A stretch of 31,354 nt of DNA from a virus (taxonomy: Duplodnaviria; Heunggongvirae; Uroviricota; Caudoviricetes). The stretch lies in the IMG/VR virus record IMGVR_UViG_2531839531_000012; one strand, given 5' to 3'. Below the pieces are notes generated by a model. It made no database searches and was not told the DNA's origin. It saw only the letters and a program-made list of their open reading frames with translations. Made by a program: the position numbers and the translations under genes. This document shows positions 1,529-13,885 of the stretch, piece after piece. Every line of letters starts with the position of its first letter. The stretch's first letter is position 1.

Positions 1529-2218
<690 letters not shown>

Positions 2219-2290
2219 TATGGCACCTGTGTTGTTCTGAGGTGAGCATATCACCTCTGTTCAGGTGGCCAAATTCAGTAAACCACTTCA

Positions 2291-3071
2291 ATTTAAACAT
2301 CCTTCCTTGACGTGTGGATAGTTCGTCATAGAGCCATTTAGGAATCGGAACAGTTCTATTCTTCTTACCTTTGGTTTTGGTGAAGGTCAGCTTGTAGGGT
2401 GAGAGTTGAGCGCGTGTAAGCCTCTCGGCTTCTCCCCATCGTGCACCGGTTGCCAAACATACCTTAACAATCATCGTAAGATTTTCTTTGCCATATTGTT
2501 CACAGGCTCGGAACAGCTCCGGGAGCTGAGACAAAGTTAGCCAGGACATTTCTTTCTCAGCTTCTTTGAATACGCGAATCCCGTCCAGTGGATTGGGTAA
2601 ACTCCACTCCCCTAATCGTCGCAGTTCATTGAACACTGCTTCGAGGTATTGCTGCTCGCGATTGACAGTTATAGGTTTGGCGATCCACTTCGCCGGGTCT
2701 TTGTGATAGCCGTTGTCTATTTCGCCACGTAATCGACGGTCACGGTAATGAGCCCAATCTTTAGCGGTAAGACGAGATGCAATAGGGTCGCCCAACCCGT
2801 TACATACGATTTGAAGCTTTGCCAACCGCGACTTACTGGCTACTAACGCCTGACCGTGCAAATTGTGCCAAAGCTGAATAATCTCACTTAAGCGTCGGCG
2901 GTCTTCTTTCTTGCCGAGCCACGGCTTATCTTCACTCTCGCTTTTGGTAAATGCTTCGAATGCCTCGGCCTCACCTTTGGTATTGAATTGACGACGTATA
3001 CGCCGCCCTTCCCGGCCATTTGGATAAAGCTCACATAACCATTTACCATTTTTTTGCTTACTTACTGTCAT
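2291..3071 (-). pseudogene. int: P2/186-type tyrosine integrase, C-terminally truncated by the IS insertion
   Basis: N-terminal 260 aa (MTVSKQKNGKWLCELYPNGREGRRIRRQF...CLATGARWGEAERL...NRTVPIPKWLYDELSTRQGRMFK) has the P2 Int pattern. The segment normally carrying the catalytic H-x-x-R and Tyr is replaced by IS sequence from 2290 leftward. Confidence 0.8.
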
Positions 3072-6326: not shown

Positions 6327-8552
6327 ATGACAAAATATACTTTTGCTTTTCCGTGGAATGCCCCACGGTCGGCAATAGTCAGTCCATATCTTACCTACGA
6401 CCAACAGTATCGCCGCGACCGTATGTTCGCGGCTTTGCTGCATGCGAAAAAGGTGCTTTCTCTCCAGCCCGACTGCGTGCGGTTAGATGTTTATCGCACT
6501 GCTGCGGTGCTGGAGCAAAATCAGGGCAGTCAACGAACCAATGCCTTTTTAATCAGCTTCTGCAAAAAGGAATTGCCGCGTCTTGAACTGGTCGCAAAAA
6601 AATACGAATGCGCGGGTATCAACAGCAATGTATCAACCGCTGTTTTTGGAGGTCATTTTGATACCCAGCTTATGCAATATCTGGCGTCTCGCATGGTTAA
6701 TATGGTCGCCCGATATAACCGCCTCCCGGACATGTCGCGCGCTGATGTTGACCTGTTGGCCGCTGATATTGCTAATTTCATTCGTGGTGAACTTGCCAAC
6801 ATTGATGACAACGGATTCGGCGAGCTTAAAACGCTGTACACCTGGTATATCCGTGCTGGCTTTATTTCCCTCCAATTCAACGTTATCCCACCACATTGGG
6901 ATCGGGTTGCAAAAAAATATGTCGGCGCGGATGAAATCGCACCGGCTATCGCCAAGATGTTTAACGATGGGTGGTGGCGTGGTCGTTTGCGCCGTGTTGC
7001 GGCTACTTGGCGCGAACACCTGCAAATTGCAGTCGGCAACGTCAGCAAGAAAAAAAACACCTACGCGAGTAAAAACTGCGTGACTGACTGGCGTGAACAA
7101 AAGCGCCGCACTCGTGAATTTCTCAAAGGTCTGGATCTCGAAGACGAAGACGGCAACCGTATCAGCCTGATTGAAAAATATGATGGCTCAGTTGCTAACC
7201 CTGCCATTCGCCGCTGTGAGCTCATGACCCGCATTCGTGGGTTTGAAAACATCTGTAATGAGCTCGGTTATGTTGGTGAGTTTTACACTCTAACCGCGCC
7301 GTCAAAATATCACGCCACGACTAAAGCCGGGTACCGTAACAGCAAATGGAGCGGTGCTAGCCCGGCTGACACGCAAAACTATCTAACCGGTATCTGGGCG
7401 CGTATCCGTGCCAAACTGCATCGGGAAGATGTCCGTATTTTCGGTATTCGTGTCGCCGAACCCCATCACGACGGCACTCCACACTGGCACATACTGATGT
7501 TCATGCTGCCGGAAGATGTTGAATATGTTCGATCCATCGTCCGTAAATACGCATGGAAAGAAGACCGCCACGAACTGAAAAGCGATAAAGCCAAAAAAGC
7601 ACGTTTCCACGCCGAGGCCATTGACCCGGAGAAAGGCAGCGCAACCGGCTATGTTGCTAAATACATCTCAAAAAATATCGACGGTTATGCTCTCGATGGT
7701 GAAACCGATGATGAAAGTGGTGAACTGCTGAAAGAGACAGCCCCCGCCGTTTCAGCATGGGCAGCGCGCTGGCACATCCGTCAGTTTCAGTTTATCGGTG
7801 GTGCGCCGGTGACGGTCTACCGTGAGTTGCGTCGCCTCGCTGATACCGAAACCGCGCACGGCCTGAGCGTTGAGTTTGCCGCCGTCCATGATGCCGCCGA
7901 CGCAGGTGACTGGGCTGGTTATGTTAATGCGCAGGGTGGGCCGTTTGTCCGTCGCGATGATTTACAGGTGCGTACACTGTATGAACCCCGTACCGAGCTT
8001 AATCAGTACGGTGAGGAAACGGTATGTATTAAGGGGGTCTACGATTCCTCCATAGGTGCAGGAAGCCCGATTTTAACCAGGCTTACTCAGTGGAAGATTG
8101 TTCCGAAGCGTGCTGTTGATTTGGCCGTTGACCTTCAGGACGGCAAAGCCGTCCCTCGGAGTTCTGTCAATAACTGTACGGGAAGCGAAAGCGATCCACC
8201 GATACTGGATTTAACAAAACCACTGAGTCGGCGTGAAAGACGAGAATTGACCAACCGACTCAGGAAGCAAAAGCCAGCAGCACGGCGAAAATTCATCCAC
8301 GGAACGGATGAGCAAAACGCAGCTATAGCTAAAACTATCGACGAAATACATCTGACAACCGGCATTAATATCAGCCGGGGCGAAGCCCTGCACCTGATGG
8401 CCGGTGGTAAAAGTTGTTTTGATGGTAAATGGCTACGCGGAACGGCCAAAGGAGAAATATTTTCCGCAGCACCATCGCATGAGGCTAAAGCTCGGAAAAT
8501 CCTTAATCGTGTTGCGGCGATGGCTGAAGCATCAAAACCAATACATAAGTAA
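6327..8552 (+). CDS. A: Replication initiation protein gpA (rolling-circle nicking endonuclease)
   Basis: 741 aa. Contains HWHILMF and YVAKYISK (active-site Tyr region). GGAG-type RBS. Confidence 0.9.
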   Translation: MTKYTFAFPWNAPRSAIVSPYLTYDQQYRRDRMFAALLHAKKVLSLQPDCVRLDVYRTAAVLEQNQGSQRTNAFLISFCKKELPRLELVAKKYECAGINSNVSTAVFGGHFDTQLMQYLASRMVNMVARYNRLPDMSRADVDLLAADIANFIRGELANIDDNGFGELKTLYTWYIRAGFISLQFNVIPPHWDRVAKKYVGADEIAPAIAKMFNDGWWRGRLRRVAATWREHLQIAVGNVSKKKNTYASKNCVTDWREQKRRTREFLKGLDLEDEDGNRISLIEKYDGSVANPAIRRCELMTRIRGFENICNELGYVGEFYTLTAPSKYHATTKAGYRNSKWSGASPADTQNYLTGIWARIRAKLHREDVRIFGIRVAEPHHDGTPHWHILMFMLPEDVEYVRSIVRKYAWKEDRHELKSDKAKKARFHAEAIDPEKGSATGYVAKYISKNIDGYALDGETDDESGELLKETAPAVSAWAARWHIRQFQFIGGAPVTVYRELRRLADTETAHGLSVEFAAVHDAADAGDWAGYVNAQGGPFVRRDDLQVRTLYEPRTELNQYGEETVCIKGVYDSSIGAGSPILTRLTQWKIVPKRAVDLAVDLQDGKAVPRSSVNNCTGSESDPPILDLTKPLSRRERRELTNRLRKQKPAARRKFIHGTDEQNAAIAKTIDEIHLTTGINISRGEALHLMAGGKSCFDGKWLRGTAKGEIFSAAPSHEAKARKILNRVAAMAEASKPIHK

Positions 8553-8851: not shown

Positions 8852-9085
8852 ATGAGAATCAATATCACGTTGGATAAAGAGCAAAAAATTAGTCAGGCAA
8901 CGTTGGATGCACTTGAGGCTGAGCTGTACCGCAATCTTCAACCTATTTACCCAAAGACTGCTATCCGCATTCGTAAGGGCTCAGCTAATGGCGTTGAGTT
9001 AAGCGGTTTGAAACTGGACGAAGATAAAAAACGAGTAATGGAAATCATGCAGCAGGTATGGGAGGACGATAGCTGGCTGCATTAA
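8852..9085 (+). CDS. DinI-family protein
   Basis: 77 aa (MRINITLDKEQKISQATLDALEAELYRNLQ...DEDKKRVMEIMQQVWEDDSWLH), collinear with recalled E. coli DinI (MRIEVT...DALAGEL...EDKQRISEILQETWE...W). Confidence 0.8.
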   Translation: MRINITLDKEQKISQATLDALEAELYRNLQPIYPKTAIRIRKGSANGVELSGLKLDEDKKRVMEIMQQVWEDDSWLH

Positions 9086-9606: not shown

Positions 9607-9706
9607 CGTATGTCCAATCTAAAGAATGGGGGCTGACATCCCATCATCAGATTTGTGTTATTTTAGTGCTACTCATTCGTCATTAGACATTGTAAGGGCA
9701 ATGTAT

Positions 9707-10417
9707 ATGAAACCAAGCACACACTGCGTTTATTGCGGTGTTCTCATGAATAAGGTTGAAAATCACCCCCACTGCCGCTCAGTTGAACACATGATTCCGC
9801 AAGTTTCAGTCTCCATTCATAGAACCAACGGCGAAGGTGATTTCTATGTATGCAAAAAGTGCAATGGCGATAAAAGCCGAATTGACGAGGTGTTAGGTGT
9901 CATTTGCCGCATGGTAGGAGAGCACTCAACAGGCAGCTTTGATGCTGTTAATAAATTCCATAATGCGCTTAAAAGAAAAGACTCGAAATTTCGTGAAGCA
10001 TTCCAGAGTGTTAGGCATACAAAAAAAGGTGCGCAGATAACATTACCCCTAAATGGTAGGGAGATTTACCAATACGGCACCTGGTTAGCCAAGGGAGTAT
10101 TTTTCTTAGAGTATGGGCAATTGTTGACTGTAGATAAATTAATTTGGATTAATATCGTTCGCCACGATGAAGTAATGGCTATTAAAGAAATGTATAGAAA
10201 TGAACGTGGCTCTGAGGCATTTGATGATTTATCGAAGAATAGCAACATTCCAAATATTAATGGCGAGTCGTTTCTGATTGTTGGCCAGGATGCCCGAGAA
10301 ATGTTTATTTGCTTCAATAGAGTAATGATGTTTCATATAAAGATACTGGATAGAACGTTTATTAATCAAAAAAAATGCAAAAAAGCCCTACTCAATCTGG
10401 AAAAAAGGGTTCGATAA
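9707..10417 (+). CDS. HNH nuclease-domain protein with an uncharacterised ~160-aa C-terminal domain; cargo gene in the A-to-cos variable region
   Basis: 236 aa from the Met with a TAAGGG RBS. N-terminus has C-x2-C (CVYCG), EHMIPQ and CKKCNGDK, an HNH-type arrangement. Distinctly AT-rich. Terminator-like hairpins on both sides. Confidence 0.7.
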   Translation: MKPSTHCVYCGVLMNKVENHPHCRSVEHMIPQVSVSIHRTNGEGDFYVCKKCNGDKSRIDEVLGVICRMVGEHSTGSFDAVNKFHNALKRKDSKFREAFQSVRHTKKGAQITLPLNGREIYQYGTWLAKGVFFLEYGQLLTVDKLIWINIVRHDEVMAIKEMYRNERGSEAFDDLSKNSNIPNINGESFLIVGQDAREMFICFNRVMMFHIKILDRTFINQKKCKKALLNLEKRVR

Positions 10418-10442
10418 GATAAATAAGATGTAATGAATGTGT

Positions 10443-10463
10443 GCATGCCACTGCATTTTTTTG
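10443..10463 (+). terminator. Weak candidate terminator after the HNH gene
   Basis: ATGC-cact-GCAT followed by T7 (10456-10462), with flanking GCATGC palindromes. Confidence 0.35.
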
Positions 10464-10562
10464 CATGCGTTGATCCAACCGCCAAAACATAAGGAGTACC
10501 GGTAGTAGCTTAGCTAAAGCGAGGTCATGCAACTGCATTAAAACCGACCCATAAAGCGGGCA

Positions 10563-10581
10563 GGCGTGGCGGGGAAAGCAT
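10563..10581. other. Candidate cos cohesive-end sequence
   Basis: GGCGTGGCGGGGAAAGCAT resembles the 19-nt cohesive end recalled for P2 (GGCGAGGCGGGGAAAGCAC) and 186. It lies in the non-coding stretch beyond the portal gene's 3' end, where cos sits in a P2-family prophage. Confidence 0.55.
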
Positions 10582-10807
10582 TGCGCGCCAGCGGTGGTGC
10601 GTATTATTAAAAAATACCGTCTGAGTGCGTTGTGGTGGAGCTAACGAGAGCGTTGCTAGATCGTGGGAGTTCTGATGCGAACGTGGGGCTATGTTTTGTC
10701 TGTGGAGCGATGAGAGAGGGTGAGATCAGTCGCACAATTCTACGGCTGTGCTTCCGTTAATATCTTCATCGGTATGTCATGTTCCCTACCAACAGCTGGA
10801 GGCTTTA

Positions 10808-11032
10808 ATGGATAACTATCACATTACAAAAGATGGCGATAAGTGGAAGCTTCAAAAGGAAGGAAATGAGCGGCCTAGCAAGACTGCAACAACTAAGGCT
10901 GAGATCATCAAAGATACTCAAGATTACATGTCCAATAAGACTGGCTCAGTAAAAATTCACAAAGAGGATGGGAAGTTTCAGGAAGAGCGCACTTACCCTC
11001 GTAAAGCTGATCCTAAAAAGTCCAAAGGTTAA
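10808..11032 (+). CDS. Small DUF2188-like protein; cargo gene between cos and the portal gene
   Basis: 74 aa from the internal Met (MDNYHITKDGDKWKLQKEGNERPSKT...KIHKEDGKFQEERTYPRK). GGAGG RBS. AT-rich. Confidence 0.55.
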   Translation: MDNYHITKDGDKWKLQKEGNERPSKTATTKAEIIKDTQDYMSNKTGSVKIHKEDGKFQEERTYPRKADPKKSKG

Positions 11033-11042
11033 TAAAGTCAAA

Positions 11043-11060
11043 GCCGCCATGATTGGCGGC
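11043..11060. terminator. Bidirectional terminator hairpin between convergent genes
   Basis: GCCGCCA-tgat-TGGCGGC: 7-bp GC stem with A/T-rich flanks, between the + strand ORF stop (11032) and the portal stop (11070). Confidence 0.6.
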
Positions 11061-11069
11061 TTAACTGGA

Positions 11070-12116
11070 TTATTCCGGGTTGTCGAGGGTGTACTCTTTG
11101 AACCTGATGACCTCTATACCGAGCCAGTCGTTTACCTCCCTGAACCTGTCCTGCAGCGGCGACAGCTCGTTACGCACAAATACCTTTGCCACCTTCTCAA
11201 CGTCACCGAGTGAGCCGATATTCTCGGGCTTGCCACCCATTAGCTGGAACGGCACGCGGTGCGCATCCATCAGGTCGGCGGCACTGGCTTTCTTGATATT
11301 GAAAAAGTCATCCTTTGTGGCGACCTCGCTCAGTGGCACGATTTTGATGCCGTCCGGTTTTCCGCCGGGGGCGTAGAAAAACAGGTTCTTAAAGTTGCCG
11401 AGCCCTTTCGAGTTACGCATCGCCTCGCGTAGTGATTCGACGTCGGTCGCGCTCTGCGCCGGGTCGGTCACATACATGATGTAGCCCGCGTGCGCGCCGT
11501 TCTGGTAATACTTGCGACGGAACAGCGTCGCGGATTCATTCAGCCAGGCAGAATTAAGCGCGCTGAGATATTCCGGCAGGCCGTAAATCTCCTGATTAAT
11601 ATCAGGCTCCAGCAGGTGAAACACGGTGTCAGGCGCGAACTCATGCGGCTGAGTGAAGTTTTCCACAAACCAGAAAATTGAATCATCAACCCCACGGCGG
11701 GTGTATTTTGCTGGTGATGCCAGCAACTTGATTAACTGGCCGGTGACGCTGTGGCGCTGCTCAAGAAAAGCGTTGCCGAAGACCAGATAGTCGAGAGCAA
11801 AACGGCTGAAATCCTGACGGGACAGCAGCGGGTGCGGAATGTAGGTGCTCGCGAGTACGTTGCGTTTAACGTAAATCGGTGAGCTGTGATGTACGGCAGA
11901 GCGCAGGCTCTTTGCCAGCCCGGAAAAGCTGACCGGCGGCTCGTACCATTTGCCGTTACTGATGCACTCGACATAATCCAGAATGTCGCGCTTATCGAGC
12001 ACCGGAACTGGCTCACCGAAGGTGAACGCTTCCATTTTTTGCGGTGCGCTGGCTTTCAGTTGCTGTGGTGCGCGTGTTTTCTGCGCGGCGGCTTTGCGGG
12101 ATTTTTGCTTACCCAT
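11070..12116 (-). CDS. Q: Portal protein gpQ
   Basis: 348 aa. P2 Q-like length and sequence. Adjacent to cos and divergent from the O operon. Confidence 0.85.
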   Translation of the reverse strand: MGKQKSRKAAAQKTRAPQQLKASAPQKMEAFTFGEPVPVLDKRDILDYVECISNGKWYEPPVSFSGLAKSLRSAVHHSSPIYVKRNVLASTYIPHPLLSRQDFSRFALDYLVFGNAFLEQRHSVTGQLIKLLASPAKYTRRGVDDSIFWFVENFTQPHEFAPDTVFHLLEPDINQEIYGLPEYLSALNSAWLNESATLFRRKYYQNGAHAGYIMYVTDPAQSATDVESLREAMRNSKGLGNFKNLFFYAPGGKPDGIKIVPLSEVATKDDFFNIKKASAADLMDAHRVPFQLMGGKPENIGSLGDVEKVAKVFVRNELSPLQDRFREVNDWLGIEVIRFKEYTLDNPE

Positions 12117-13885
12117 TAGTTGAACTCCAGAATAGATTTAGGCTGCATGCCGCTACCGGCAGAAAGCGGTTCGTTTAACAGGGCGTGCATGGTCGCCCAT
12201 GCGATATCGGCGTGACTGGCTTCCTCGGTGCGGCTGGCCTCGTAGGTGGCGCTGCGCCCGCTGCTGGTCATGGTTTTGCGAATCGACATAAACGACTGCG
12301 TGACGTCGGTTGCCCCTGCGTCGTACTCCAGACAGCCACGGCGAATGGTGTCTTTTGCCTTGAGCACCATTGCGGTTTTCATTTCAGGTGTGTAACGGAT
12401 GCCGCGTGCTGCCGGGTAGAATGAGCGCACCAACTGGAACACGCCGAGGCCGAGGCCGGTTGCGTCAATGCCGATGTATTCGACGTTGTATTTCTCGGTC
12501 AGCTTGCGGATGCCCTCTGCCTGCGCGGCAAAGTCCATGCTTTTCCATTGGTGGCGCTCCAGCATGCGGAACTTGCTACCCGAGACCACCGGCGGTGCGA
12601 GCACGACGCACCCGGCACTGTCGCCAGTGTGCGACGGGTCGTAGCCAATCCAGACCGGGCGAGAACCGAAAGGATGGTCGGCGAACGGGGCAAAGTCCTC
12701 CCATTCTTCCATCACATCGACCATGCAGCGCTGCAGCTCCTCGAACGGGAATACCGATGCTTTATCGTCGACAAACTCGCACATAAACAGGTTTTTAAAA
12801 TCATCATCACTGTTTTCTCGTTTGAGCTGGTCGAGGTCGAACAGGGTGCAGCCCCCGGCAAGGGCATCCTCAATGGTGACAATCTGCCGCCACTGGCCAT
12901 CGTCGCAGAGCTGACCACCGGCGAGCGCGCGGTGACTGATGTCGATTTCGATGCGGTCAGCGGCACTGGCGCGCCCCTTGTTGAACAGCTCACCAGACCA
13001 GAAGGGGTAAGCCCCGTGCGCCAGTGTTGAGGGTGTCGAAAAGTAGGTCGAGCGCAGGTGCTTCTGCGAAGCCATGCCCGAGGCGACTTTGCGCAGTTTC
13101 TGAAAGTTCGGGATCCAGAATATTTCATCGACATACAGGTCGCCGTTATGGCTCTGCGCGGTGTTGGAATTGGTACCGAGAAAAATCAGTTTTGCGCCGT
13201 TGTTACCGATGGCAATCGGGTCGCCGGTCAAGTCAACGTCGACCAGTCGTGCAAACTGGATGATGTATTCGCGAAACACGTAAGCCTGCGTTTTACTGGC
13301 TGATAAAAATATCTGGTTATGGCCTGTTTTGAGCGCGCGCAGCAGCGCCTCGCGGGAGAAATAGAACGTCGCACCAATCTGGCGGGATTTGAGAATGTCA
13401 CGAATACGGTGCTCCAGTCCTGCGCGGTACCACTGCAACTGGTACTCGAAAGACTGGTCGAAAAATAATTCCTCCAGTTTCTCGATAGCCTCGTCGCTGA
13501 AAAAATTCTTTTTCGGCTTTTTGCGCTCCCCTTTGTTGCGGTTGGCGACGTTGGGGTTAAGGTCGGCTTCGTTGCCGGTCTGGCTGTAGCGGTTGACGCG
13601 CGCCAGCCGCTCAATCTGCCGCCCGAGCAGGTCAATCTCTTTGAAATCACAGCCCGTCTTCTGTGGTTTCGCGATGAGCTGAATCAGGCGCGCCTCAAGG
13701 CTGCTTTCAACGCGGGAAATCGGTGCGATGCCGTCCCAGCCGTCGCGCTGCTTCCAGCTCTGCACGGTCGGGCGCTTGACCTGCAGCATTTCGGCAATCT
13801 GTGGCACGGAAAAGCCCTGCCAGTAAAGCAGCGATGCCTGTCGTCGCGGGTCATGCAACAAGGTTGTATCGGTGGAAATGGTCAT
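12116..13885 (-). CDS. P: Terminase large (ATPase) subunit gpP
   Basis: 589 aa. P2 P-like. Overlaps the Q start by 1 nt. Confidence 0.85.
   Translation of the reverse strand: MTISTDTTLLHDPRRQASLLYWQGFSVPQIAEMLQVKRPTVQSWKQRDGWDGIAPISRVESSLEARLIQLIAKPQKTGCDFKEIDLLGRQIERLARVNRYSQTGNEADLNPNVANRNKGERKKPKKNFFSDEAIEKLEELFFDQSFEYQLQWYRAGLEHRIRDILKSRQIGATFYFSREALLRALKTGHNQIFLSASKTQAYVFREYIIQFARLVDVDLTGDPIAIGNNGAKLIFLGTNSNTAQSHNGDLYVDEIFWIPNFQKLRKVASGMASQKHLRSTYFSTPSTLAHGAYPFWSGELFNKGRASAADRIEIDISHRALAGGQLCDDGQWRQIVTIEDALAGGCTLFDLDQLKRENSDDDFKNLFMCEFVDDKASVFPFEELQRCMVDVMEEWEDFAPFADHPFGSRPVWIGYDPSHTGDSAGCVVLAPPVVSGSKFRMLERHQWKSMDFAAQAEGIRKLTEKYNVEYIGIDATGLGLGVFQLVRSFYPAARGIRYTPEMKTAMVLKAKDTIRRGCLEYDAGATDVTQSFMSIRKTMTSSGRSATYEASRTEEASHADIAWATMHALLNEPLSAGSGMQPKSILEFN

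Follow-up and report, generated by a model that had tools for sequence, protein, structure and literature searches.

A 186-type cos site and an adjacent DUF2188 cargo cassette in a P2-family prophage of Escherichia coli

The window, by which the whole analyzed stretch of 31,354 nucleotides is meant, carries a prophage of E. coli whose genes stand in the order of the P2 family. The replication gene A (6327-8552) and a DinI-like gene (8852-9085) are followed by the cos site, the portal gene Q and gene P of the terminase ATPase (12116-13885), the last two on the - strand, and downstream of P lie O, N and M, which encode the scaffold, the capsid protein and the small terminase subunit. The portal protein is 94% identical in amino acid sequence to W of phage 186, and its gene forms the right-hand boundary of a cargo slot to the right of cos. 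Here, this slot is occupied by a small gene of the DUF2188 family (Table 1).

Table 1. Features of the region from the left flank of cos to the portal gene, in window coordinates.
Feature	Position	Strand	Basis
TGCAT-repeat element GTGCATGC..TGCAT..TTTGCATGCG	10441-10470		Conserved in 186, the E. coli EC12 and E21 prophages and P4; partly in P2
cos core TGCATTAAAACCG...GGCGNGGCGGGGAAAGCA..GCGCGC	10533-10589		Four-way alignment of P2, P4, 186 and the window prophage
19-nt cohesive end GGCGTGGCGGGGAAAGCAT, predicted staggered terminase cleavage site	10563-10581	+	Identical to the 186 cos
Right-hand cos flank, kept in 186-type and P2-type phages, not in P4	10582-10643		Alignments
Variable G/T-rich spacer	10644-10716		Homologous to 186 nt 82-163, poorly conserved
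Cassette 5' region: GATGAGATC..GCACAAT block, TAATAT (10758-10763), GGAGG (10798-10802)	10717-10807	+	
74-aa DUF2188 gene	10808-11032	+	Pfam PF09954, phrog_3220, PADLOC PDC-S16
GC-rich hairpin, homologous to 186 tW / P2 tQ	11041-11062	-	Alignment, folding
Portal gene, homologue of P2 Q / 186 W	11070-12116	-	Pfam Phage_portal

The 19-mer GGCGTGGCGGGGAAAGCAT occurs a single time in the window, where about 0.01 matches would be expected by chance with up to three mismatches allowed, and it is 100% identical to nucleotides 1-19 of coliphage 186 (Eganvirus; NC_001317), which are annotated as 'cos; cohesive end; top strand cut at 5' end and bottom strand cut at 3' end'. An earlier reading of the DNA made from its sequence only, the sequence-only reading, had taken the 19-mer for a close relative of the P2-family cohesive end. 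This resemblance is borne out by alignment with the reference sites, from which the 19-mer differs at no position in 186 and at two positions in P2 and P4, and the 19-mer fits the pattern of the 19-nt cohesive-end family, GGCG(A/T)GGCGGGGAAAGCA(C/T). In a distant BLAST comparison of 10440-11120 with 50,697 phage records, 146 P2/186-like phages were matched. In 186, PSP3, SEN1 and EtG, which are linear records deposited from their cohesive ends, the match begins at record position 1, corresponding to 10563 of the window. The last 39 nt of the 186 genome recur with one mismatch as the 39 nt left of the 19-mer, and the roughly 60 nt to its right are about 90% identical to 186; farther left, outside the core, the segment 10471-10523 differs between 186 and the window.

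The circular junctions of 186, P2 and P4 were built and aligned with the window. All four share a core of about 57 bp (~10533-10589) that is conserved almost completely, encloses the 19-mer and is the '55-bp core sequence' described by Ziermann and Calendar (1990, cited in PMC5694545). The TGCAT-repeat element, which stands some 100 nt to the left of the nick, may belong to the region recognized by terminase; a related motif, CATGCAACTGCAT, is found again at 10527-10540. The cos of the window has the same position as in the reference phages, with accessory genes towards A and the portal gene opposite, and the terminator of the portal operon is homologous. Taken together, the identity with 186, the common core and the P2-family gene order support the assignment of 10563-10581 as a genuine 186-type cos of a P2-family prophage of E. 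coli as firmly as a sequence can, and terminase would be expected to cleave there. The cos of this particular prophage is probably not in use at present and may never be used, because the integrase gene, which neighbours an IS3-type transposase gene, is cut short within the part for the catalytic domain.

Although the interval to the right of cos had been described as a tight spot, in which an insertion must not disturb cos function, the comparisons speak against this description. Between the end of the core and the start of the cassette that carries the DUF2188 gene lie about 135 nt. P4, which uses the P2 terminase for packaging (PMC9122126), diverges completely in sequence directly after the shared core, from about 27 nt right of the nick, and its first gene, gop, begins at nt 247. 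Relatives in which cos and the ATG of the DUF2188 gene are 135-142 nt apart have no G/T-rich spacer. In Lelliottia-type elements the left boundary of the cassette is only about 50 nt from the nick, and in Halomonadaceae-type prophages the ATG itself is just 95-97 nt from it. The divergence of P4 after the core and the cassettes placed nearer to cos in relatives thus suggest that the right flank tolerates cargo well. The sequences that terminase needs would lie in or left of the 19-mer, together with a few tens of bases to its right, which would leave the remainder of the interval permissive.

The DUF2188 gene runs from an ATG at 10808 to a stop codon at 11030-11032 and has a Shine-Dalgarno sequence, GGAGG, 5 nt before the start. 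The profile PF09954 is matched with an E value of 1.3e-16 and a score of 60.9 bits (cut-off 22), residues 4-63 of the ORF covering positions 1-62 of the 62 in the profile, and phrog_3220 is matched with an E value of 2.9e-29. The GC content of the ORF is 41%, against 55-58% in the portal and terminase genes, so that its description as an AT-rich, DUF2188-like ORF of 74 residues with a good ribosome-binding site stands. A longer reading of 94 aa from a GTG at 10748 was rejected, as all homologues start with MDNYH. In RefSeq, the product is entered as WP_024169089.1. The ORF also matches, over their full length, the PADLOC HMMs for PDC-S16 (E values of 1.3e-13 and 1.5e-12). PDC-S16 is a candidate only, a single-gene system proposed by 'guilt by embedding' from genes lying inside BREX, DISARM or type I RM loci (source preprint).

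Compared with two natural alleles, those of the E. coli EC12 prophage and of a Superficieibacter prophage, the gene has a dN/dS of about 0.04, and synonymous differences from the EC12 allele reach 0.70 per site, near saturation. Because of this low dN/dS against both alleles, the ORF is regarded as a real, functional gene under strong purifying selection. Homologues of 74 aa with 70-85% identity are found in Enterobacterales, Pseudomonas, Vibrio, Achromobacter, Chlorobi and candidate-phyla bacteria. The protein is basic, with a pI of 9.5. AlphaFold2 predicts three strands, a helix and two further strands, with a disordered basic tail after them (pLDDT 84.7); the predicted fold is similar to that of YegP/DUF1508-like proteins.

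Upstream of the gene, a -10-like TAATAT lies 44 nt before the ATG. Its TAnnnT pattern is kept across variants of the cassette and a conserved CACAAT block precedes it, and a promoter may be placed at this position. A scan of 10300-11200 for sigma-70 promoters called none, and neither an Ogr/Delta-type TGT-N12-ACA element nor a LexA box was found by eye upstream of the gene. Downstream, the stop codon is 8 nt from the GC-rich hairpin, which folds with -23.4 kcal/mol on the + strand and -20.4 kcal/mol on the - strand (z about -5). The hairpin had been proposed to be a bidirectional terminator. Its stem is indeed stable on both strands, but a T-run follows it only on the - strand, that of the portal operon. 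From its alignment with the terminators of 186 and P2 and its folding, it is best described as the terminator of the portal/terminase operon, which would also close the DUF2188 gene. Searches of Rfam gave only sub-threshold matches over the hairpin (STnc430, with 30 bits against a threshold of 47, and RNAI), which are treated as the terminator hairpin itself. A hairpin with a GCCGCC stem stands 3' of the DUF2188 gene in 27 of 37 P2/P4 contexts as against 1 of 84 other contexts, and the idea that it is a general part of the DUF2188 gene unit was rejected on the latter count.

The boundaries of the cassette are defined by phages and prophages that lack it. In 186 and in the E. coli E21 prophage, the G/T-rich spacer is joined directly to the hairpin; the window and EC12 (NZ_CP060933), which represents a second E. 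coli lineage, have about 315 additional bp. The cassette starts at about 10717, with its left junction around GATGAGATC (~10717-10727), and this junction is common to the window, EC12 and prophages of Superficieibacter and Lelliottia. Because of the cassette, cos and the portal stop codon are 507 nt apart in the window; in 186 the distance is 195 nt, and in P2 it is 186 nt. The cos type of the window is found in 164 of 5,426 complete E. coli genomes. The DUF2188 gene is present in 11 of these, four of them identical to the window and seven with an allele about 80% identical, and is missing from the other 153. The cassette is also missing from 186, P2 and all 146 related phage records, and tblastn and blastn searches of the 50,697 phage records returned no close homologue of the gene or the cassette; the best matches to the ORF, in Streptococcus and Latilactobacillus phages, have about 31% identity and E values of 0.3 or worse. 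With so few carriers among the E. coli genomes and none among the related phage records, the gene is accessory and not core. Its presence/absence polymorphism with a precise junction and its composition distinct from the backbone are those of a moron, as which the insertion had been interpreted.

Within carriers, the cassette has a history of its own. The backbones of the window and EC12 prophages are 93-99% identical, whereas their cassettes are only 72-88% identical and synonymous sites are near saturation. This difference shows that the exchange of alleles at the cassette is independent of the backbone. Discordance in both directions indicates recombination: one locus (L094) has a cassette protein of 97% identity beside a portal of 80% identity, and another (L095) a cassette protein of 86% identity beside a portal of 98% identity. 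Such exchange could proceed through homology arms, both of them conserved in the family: the cos core would serve as the left arm, and the GCCGCC hairpin together with the portal gene's 3' end as the right arm. P2-like phages and P4-like satellites would by this means trade alleles, with the gene itself kept in the slot over the long term.

Placement of foreign genes in this interval is not unusual, and both the cos site and the hotspot around it are already known. In the P2-like Pseudomonas phage phiCTX, the ctx cytotoxin gene lies between cosL and Q. Phage phiRSY1 has ORF1-4 in the interval from cos to the portal gene, a position termed a hotspot by the authors (PMC5694545), and the whole cos-proximal locus from gpA to gpQ has been described as a defence hotspot (Rousset et al., 2022; PMC9122126). 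Like ctx, the DUF2188 gene is of foreign origin, is read from the + strand and faces a convergent portal gene from the cosL side, and both have their start within a few hundred nucleotides of the genome end (362 nt for ctx, 246 nt for the DUF2188 gene). They differ in their equipment: ctx is a toxin gene of 861 bp with an annotated promoter and terminators of its own, whereas the DUF2188 gene has 225 bp, no clear promoter and a terminator shared with the portal operon. The locus of the P2 and P4 hotspots is the same gpA-to-gpQ interval containing cos, although the named examples in P2, old and tin, are on the gpA side of cos and the DUF2188 gene is on the portal side. The term DUF2188 is found not in the main text of PMC9122126 but only in its supplementary tables for the P2 and P4 hotspots. 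These list arrangements that end in DUF2188, such as 'hypothetical + DinI + hypothetical + hypothetical + DUF2188', and, for the P4 hotspot, 'AAA_21 + DUF2188 + HNH' (PMC9122126). The interval from cos to the portal gene is thus a known permissive site for cargo.

The one finding that goes beyond the sequence-only reading is the recurrence of DUF2188 directly beside cos, which speaks against an insertion that happened only once. Fifty viral contigs in IMG/VR that encode a DUF2188 relative were examined. A P2-type cos motif stands 95-299 nt upstream of the DUF2188 ATG in 33 of these, P4-like satellites included, and a P2-like portal gene follows in 31, with portal identities from 100% down to 52%. 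The carriers of the gene in this slot thus extend to P4-like satellites and to P2-like phages with portals just 52-57% identical. The same arrangement, with a recognizable cos core in each case, is present in species-representative genomes of Lelliottia, Yersinia alsatica and Chimaeribacter, and it is also found in Modicisalibacter and Chromohalobacter of the Halomonadaceae, where a Dam-like methyltransferase gene is located in the same slot. Two P4-like satellites carry, in order, delta, psu, cos, DUF2188, a convergent Septu pair (PtuB, PtuA) and an integrase gene. Across 35 loci, which are not mutually independent, the identity of the DUF2188 protein follows that of the portal protein (rho 0.88). 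We read these patterns as those of an old accessory gene that has long been resident in the slot and has often been lost and reshuffled through the conserved flanks.

A gene for a 263-aa HNH-like protein (9626-10417) lies on the other side of cos in the window, and a two-gene, Septu-like system of HNH and DUF2188 straddling cos was considered. It was rejected, as the genes occur independently: in seven E. coli genomes DUF2188 is present and the HNH-like gene is missing, and in three an 85%-identical HNH-like gene is present and DUF2188 is missing. The hotspot of the window contains no gene for a PtuA ATPase.

The persistent proximity to cos raises the question of whether the protein has to do with DNA ends. 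It might serve as an accessory of packaging or circularization, or protect or modulate the cohesive ends against host end-processing, and such a role would explain the retention of the gene immediately beside cos. The gene stands next to cos in P2-like phages and in P4-like satellites alike, two groups with essentially nothing but cos in common (PMC9122126), and in 14 Pseudomonas species a homologue is located directly downstream of ligD, the gene of the NHEJ ligase, in most of them at a distance of about 20-25 nt. A small, basic protein would also fit, and its conservation at 70-85% identity across phyla would point to some universal target, for example nucleic acid. However, P2, 186 and all 146 related phage isolates package normally without the gene, and so many as 153 of the 164 E. 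coli prophages with the same cos do without it. For most homologues there is no connection with phages or with DNA repair, the synteny with ligD is limited to one genus and may go back to a single ancestral event, and a permissive slot by itself also explains the adjacency to cos. A tie to DNA ends or to cos is for these reasons improbable. Still less probable is the wider proposal that the positions beside cos in P2-like and P4-like elements and beside ligD in Pseudomonas have one common cause, namely that the protein is a DNA-end-associated factor acting on double-strand or cohesive ends; such a factor might protect or mark the ends, or modulate their ligation or their attack by nucleases.

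Beyond the slot, the contexts of DUF2188 are heterogeneous. Among 80 species loci only three recur, namely the ligD position, the P2-like slot and the neighbourhood of an XRE-M78 regulator. In three loci of the last type, DUF2188 is the first gene of an operon and the gene for the XRE-M78 (CapH/CapP-like) regulator lies upstream on the opposite strand, which matches the description by Lau et al. of DUF2188 genes in operons under CapH/CapP-like regulators. A census of 138 flanking proteins found no dominant partner other than ligD and the XRE-M78 regulator.

In P4-like satellites the gene has Septu as its neighbour, and PDC-S16 owes its origin to genes embedded in defence loci. Positions beside or inside such loci hold regulators and anti-defence genes as well as defence genes, and the product could accordingly be a counter-defence or entry-phase factor that serves the phage or satellite and not the lysogen, and that might inhibit an immune or nuclease system of the host. 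That the protein is small, highly conserved and very widely transferred between lineages speaks in the same direction. Many homologues are, on the other hand, chromosomal and unrelated to phages, whether in the ligD operon or as stand-alone genes, and the structural match is not significant, which makes this explanation quite unlikely.

Most homologues of DUF2188 lie outside phages and in varied contexts, and because of this a role specific to conflict is not required. The gene could instead encode a general stress or housekeeping protein that hitch-hikes in a permissive slot and has no part in phage biology. Its diverse surroundings, without a dominant neighbour except ligD in Pseudomonas, agree with this, as does a fold like that of YegP/DUF1508-like proteins. 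The literature, in which DUF2188 mostly turns up in passing in proteomics or expression studies, points the same way. Such a passenger is nonetheless unlikely to be retained for long in the size-limited genomes of P2-like and P4-like elements; this long retention, the purifying selection (dN/dS 0.04) and a divergence that tracks that of the portal argue for a selected benefit within the mobile element.

The explanation that we prefer, with a probability of about 0.65, is that a functional-type cos of a 186-like E. coli prophage is followed by a self-contained cargo cassette with a conflict-related accessory gene. The cassette consists of a 5' region of 85-90 nt and the 74-aa DUF2188 gene, ending with the stop codon 8 nt before the hairpin, and fills the interval between the cos flank and the terminator of the portal operon. 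The gene would probably be expressed from the prophage through a weak or regulated promoter of its own. Its product most likely acts in conflict between phage and host or between phages, as a defence, exclusion or regulatory accessory, a role suggested by its likeness to most of the cargo of the cos-proximal hotspot. Certain observations run against this explanation: no sigma-70 promoter is called, the + strand has no U-tract after the hairpin, and the cassette is present in no sequenced phage isolate, so that genomes bearing it are only presumed to package normally.

Current views of the P2 family are not overturned by these results, and the part that deserves to be followed up is confined to the pairing of cos with DUF2188 and the synteny with ligD. 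In practical terms, the 186-type cos at 10563-10581 fixes the genome ends of this prophage family, which is of use for annotating genome ends, for the design of cos vectors and for judging which part of the right-hand flank is dispensable. The DUF2188 candidate is, in addition, a cheap and well-defined target for functional testing. If the DNA-end reading were true, phages, satellites and bacterial repair loci would have in common a small end-binding protein that was previously unrecognized. What makes the locus biologically interesting is that a single small, very conserved protein is encoded again and again in the slot next to cos, in helper phages and satellites alike.

The DUF2188 cassette that lies between cos and the portal gene of the window is found in several other genetic contexts, among them bacterial chromosomes and satellites. 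At the locus from Superficieibacter electus (L006), exactly the interval corresponding to window 10717-11188 is retained at 92% identity, and it comprises the cassette, the hairpin and a 38-aa portal remnant. The copy from Kosakonia sacchari (L007) is chromosomal by context and likewise retains the GCCGCCA hairpin. Neither copy lies within an intact prophage, and both are probably prophage relics. Two further loci, L096 and L109, are P4-like satellites with delta, psu and cos. Each has the same cassette, starting about 231 nt to the right of cos and facing a convergently transcribed Septu PtuB/PtuA pair; the integrase comes next. This arrangement agrees with the 'AAA_21 + DUF2188 + HNH' entries that an earlier study lists in its supplement (PMC9122126; Rousset et al., 2022).

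In the window itself, the gpA-cos hotspot, immediately left of cos, is occupied by an AT-rich (35-43% GC) HNH-like orphan ORF of 263 aa, which matches phrog_31193 with an E value of 9e-172 and gives only weak PADLOC matches to the Septu nuclease PtuB (E ~1e-4); no PtuA ATPase is present near it in the window. Three E. coli genomes have the HNH-like gene but no DUF2188 gene. Between this ORF and the nick are repeated CATGC(A/C)AC..TGCAT motifs, which are kept in 186 and P4, and in part in P2. As candidate recognition repeats for terminase, they can be compared with R4-R6, which the phiCTX annotation places around its cos.

Beyond the enterobacterial phages, the slot between cos and the portal gene holds both a Dam-like methyltransferase and a DUF2188 gene in P2-like prophages of Chromohalobacter (L049, L064). 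In 14 Pseudomonas species (within loci L025-L071), a homologue of the 74-aa protein begins, at most loci, ~20-25 nt past the end of ligD, whose product at these 14 loci, a multidomain ligase of the NHEJ pathway, is ~850-1150 aa long; the pair resembles an operon.

Coordinates of features in the window and in the compared loci
Feature	Location	Strand	Remarks
IS3-type transposase orfA	window 1919-2254	-	HTH_Tnp_1; adjoins integrase
Truncated prophage integrase	window 2190-3071	-	2-75/172 catalytic-domain positions left
HNH-like orphan ORF, 263 aa	window 9626-10417	+	Cys/His motif; phrog_31193 match
CATGC(A/C)AC..TGCAT motifs	window 10441-10470 and 10527-10540		left of nick
IS-split major capsid region	L003 17223-19525		E. 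coli Ecol_545, NZ_CP018976
Isolated cassette copy	L006 4828-5299		Superficieibacter electus
Isolated cassette copy	L007 5990-6254		Kosakonia sacchari
DUF2188/Septu region	L096 7426-10890		P4-like satellite
DUF2188/Septu region	L109 7769-11234		P4-like satellite
Dam-like type II/orphan DNA methyltransferase	L049 6280-7098; L064 6274-7092	-	PADLOC MTase_II, E 2e-148
ligD, then DUF2188 homologue	L029 2550-5978 and 6001-6222		Pseudomonas example

The catalytic domain of the window integrase is lost beyond the retained positions and, since the truncated gene is also abutted by the IS3-type orfA, the prophage has probably lost the ability to excise. The related prophage of E. coli Ecol_545 is identical to the window in the cos/DUF2188 region, whereas its immunity and integrase module differs (81-83% identical); its major capsid gene is interrupted by ISEc12, an IS21-family element.

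Among E. coli prophages of this cos type, 11 of 164 carry the cassette, whereas none of the 146 related phages that have been isolated does (p ~0.001 by Fisher's test, on records that are not independent). Because of this non-independence, the absence of the cassette from isolates may be a sampling effect; alternatively, prophages that carry it may seldom be recovered as plaque-forming phages.
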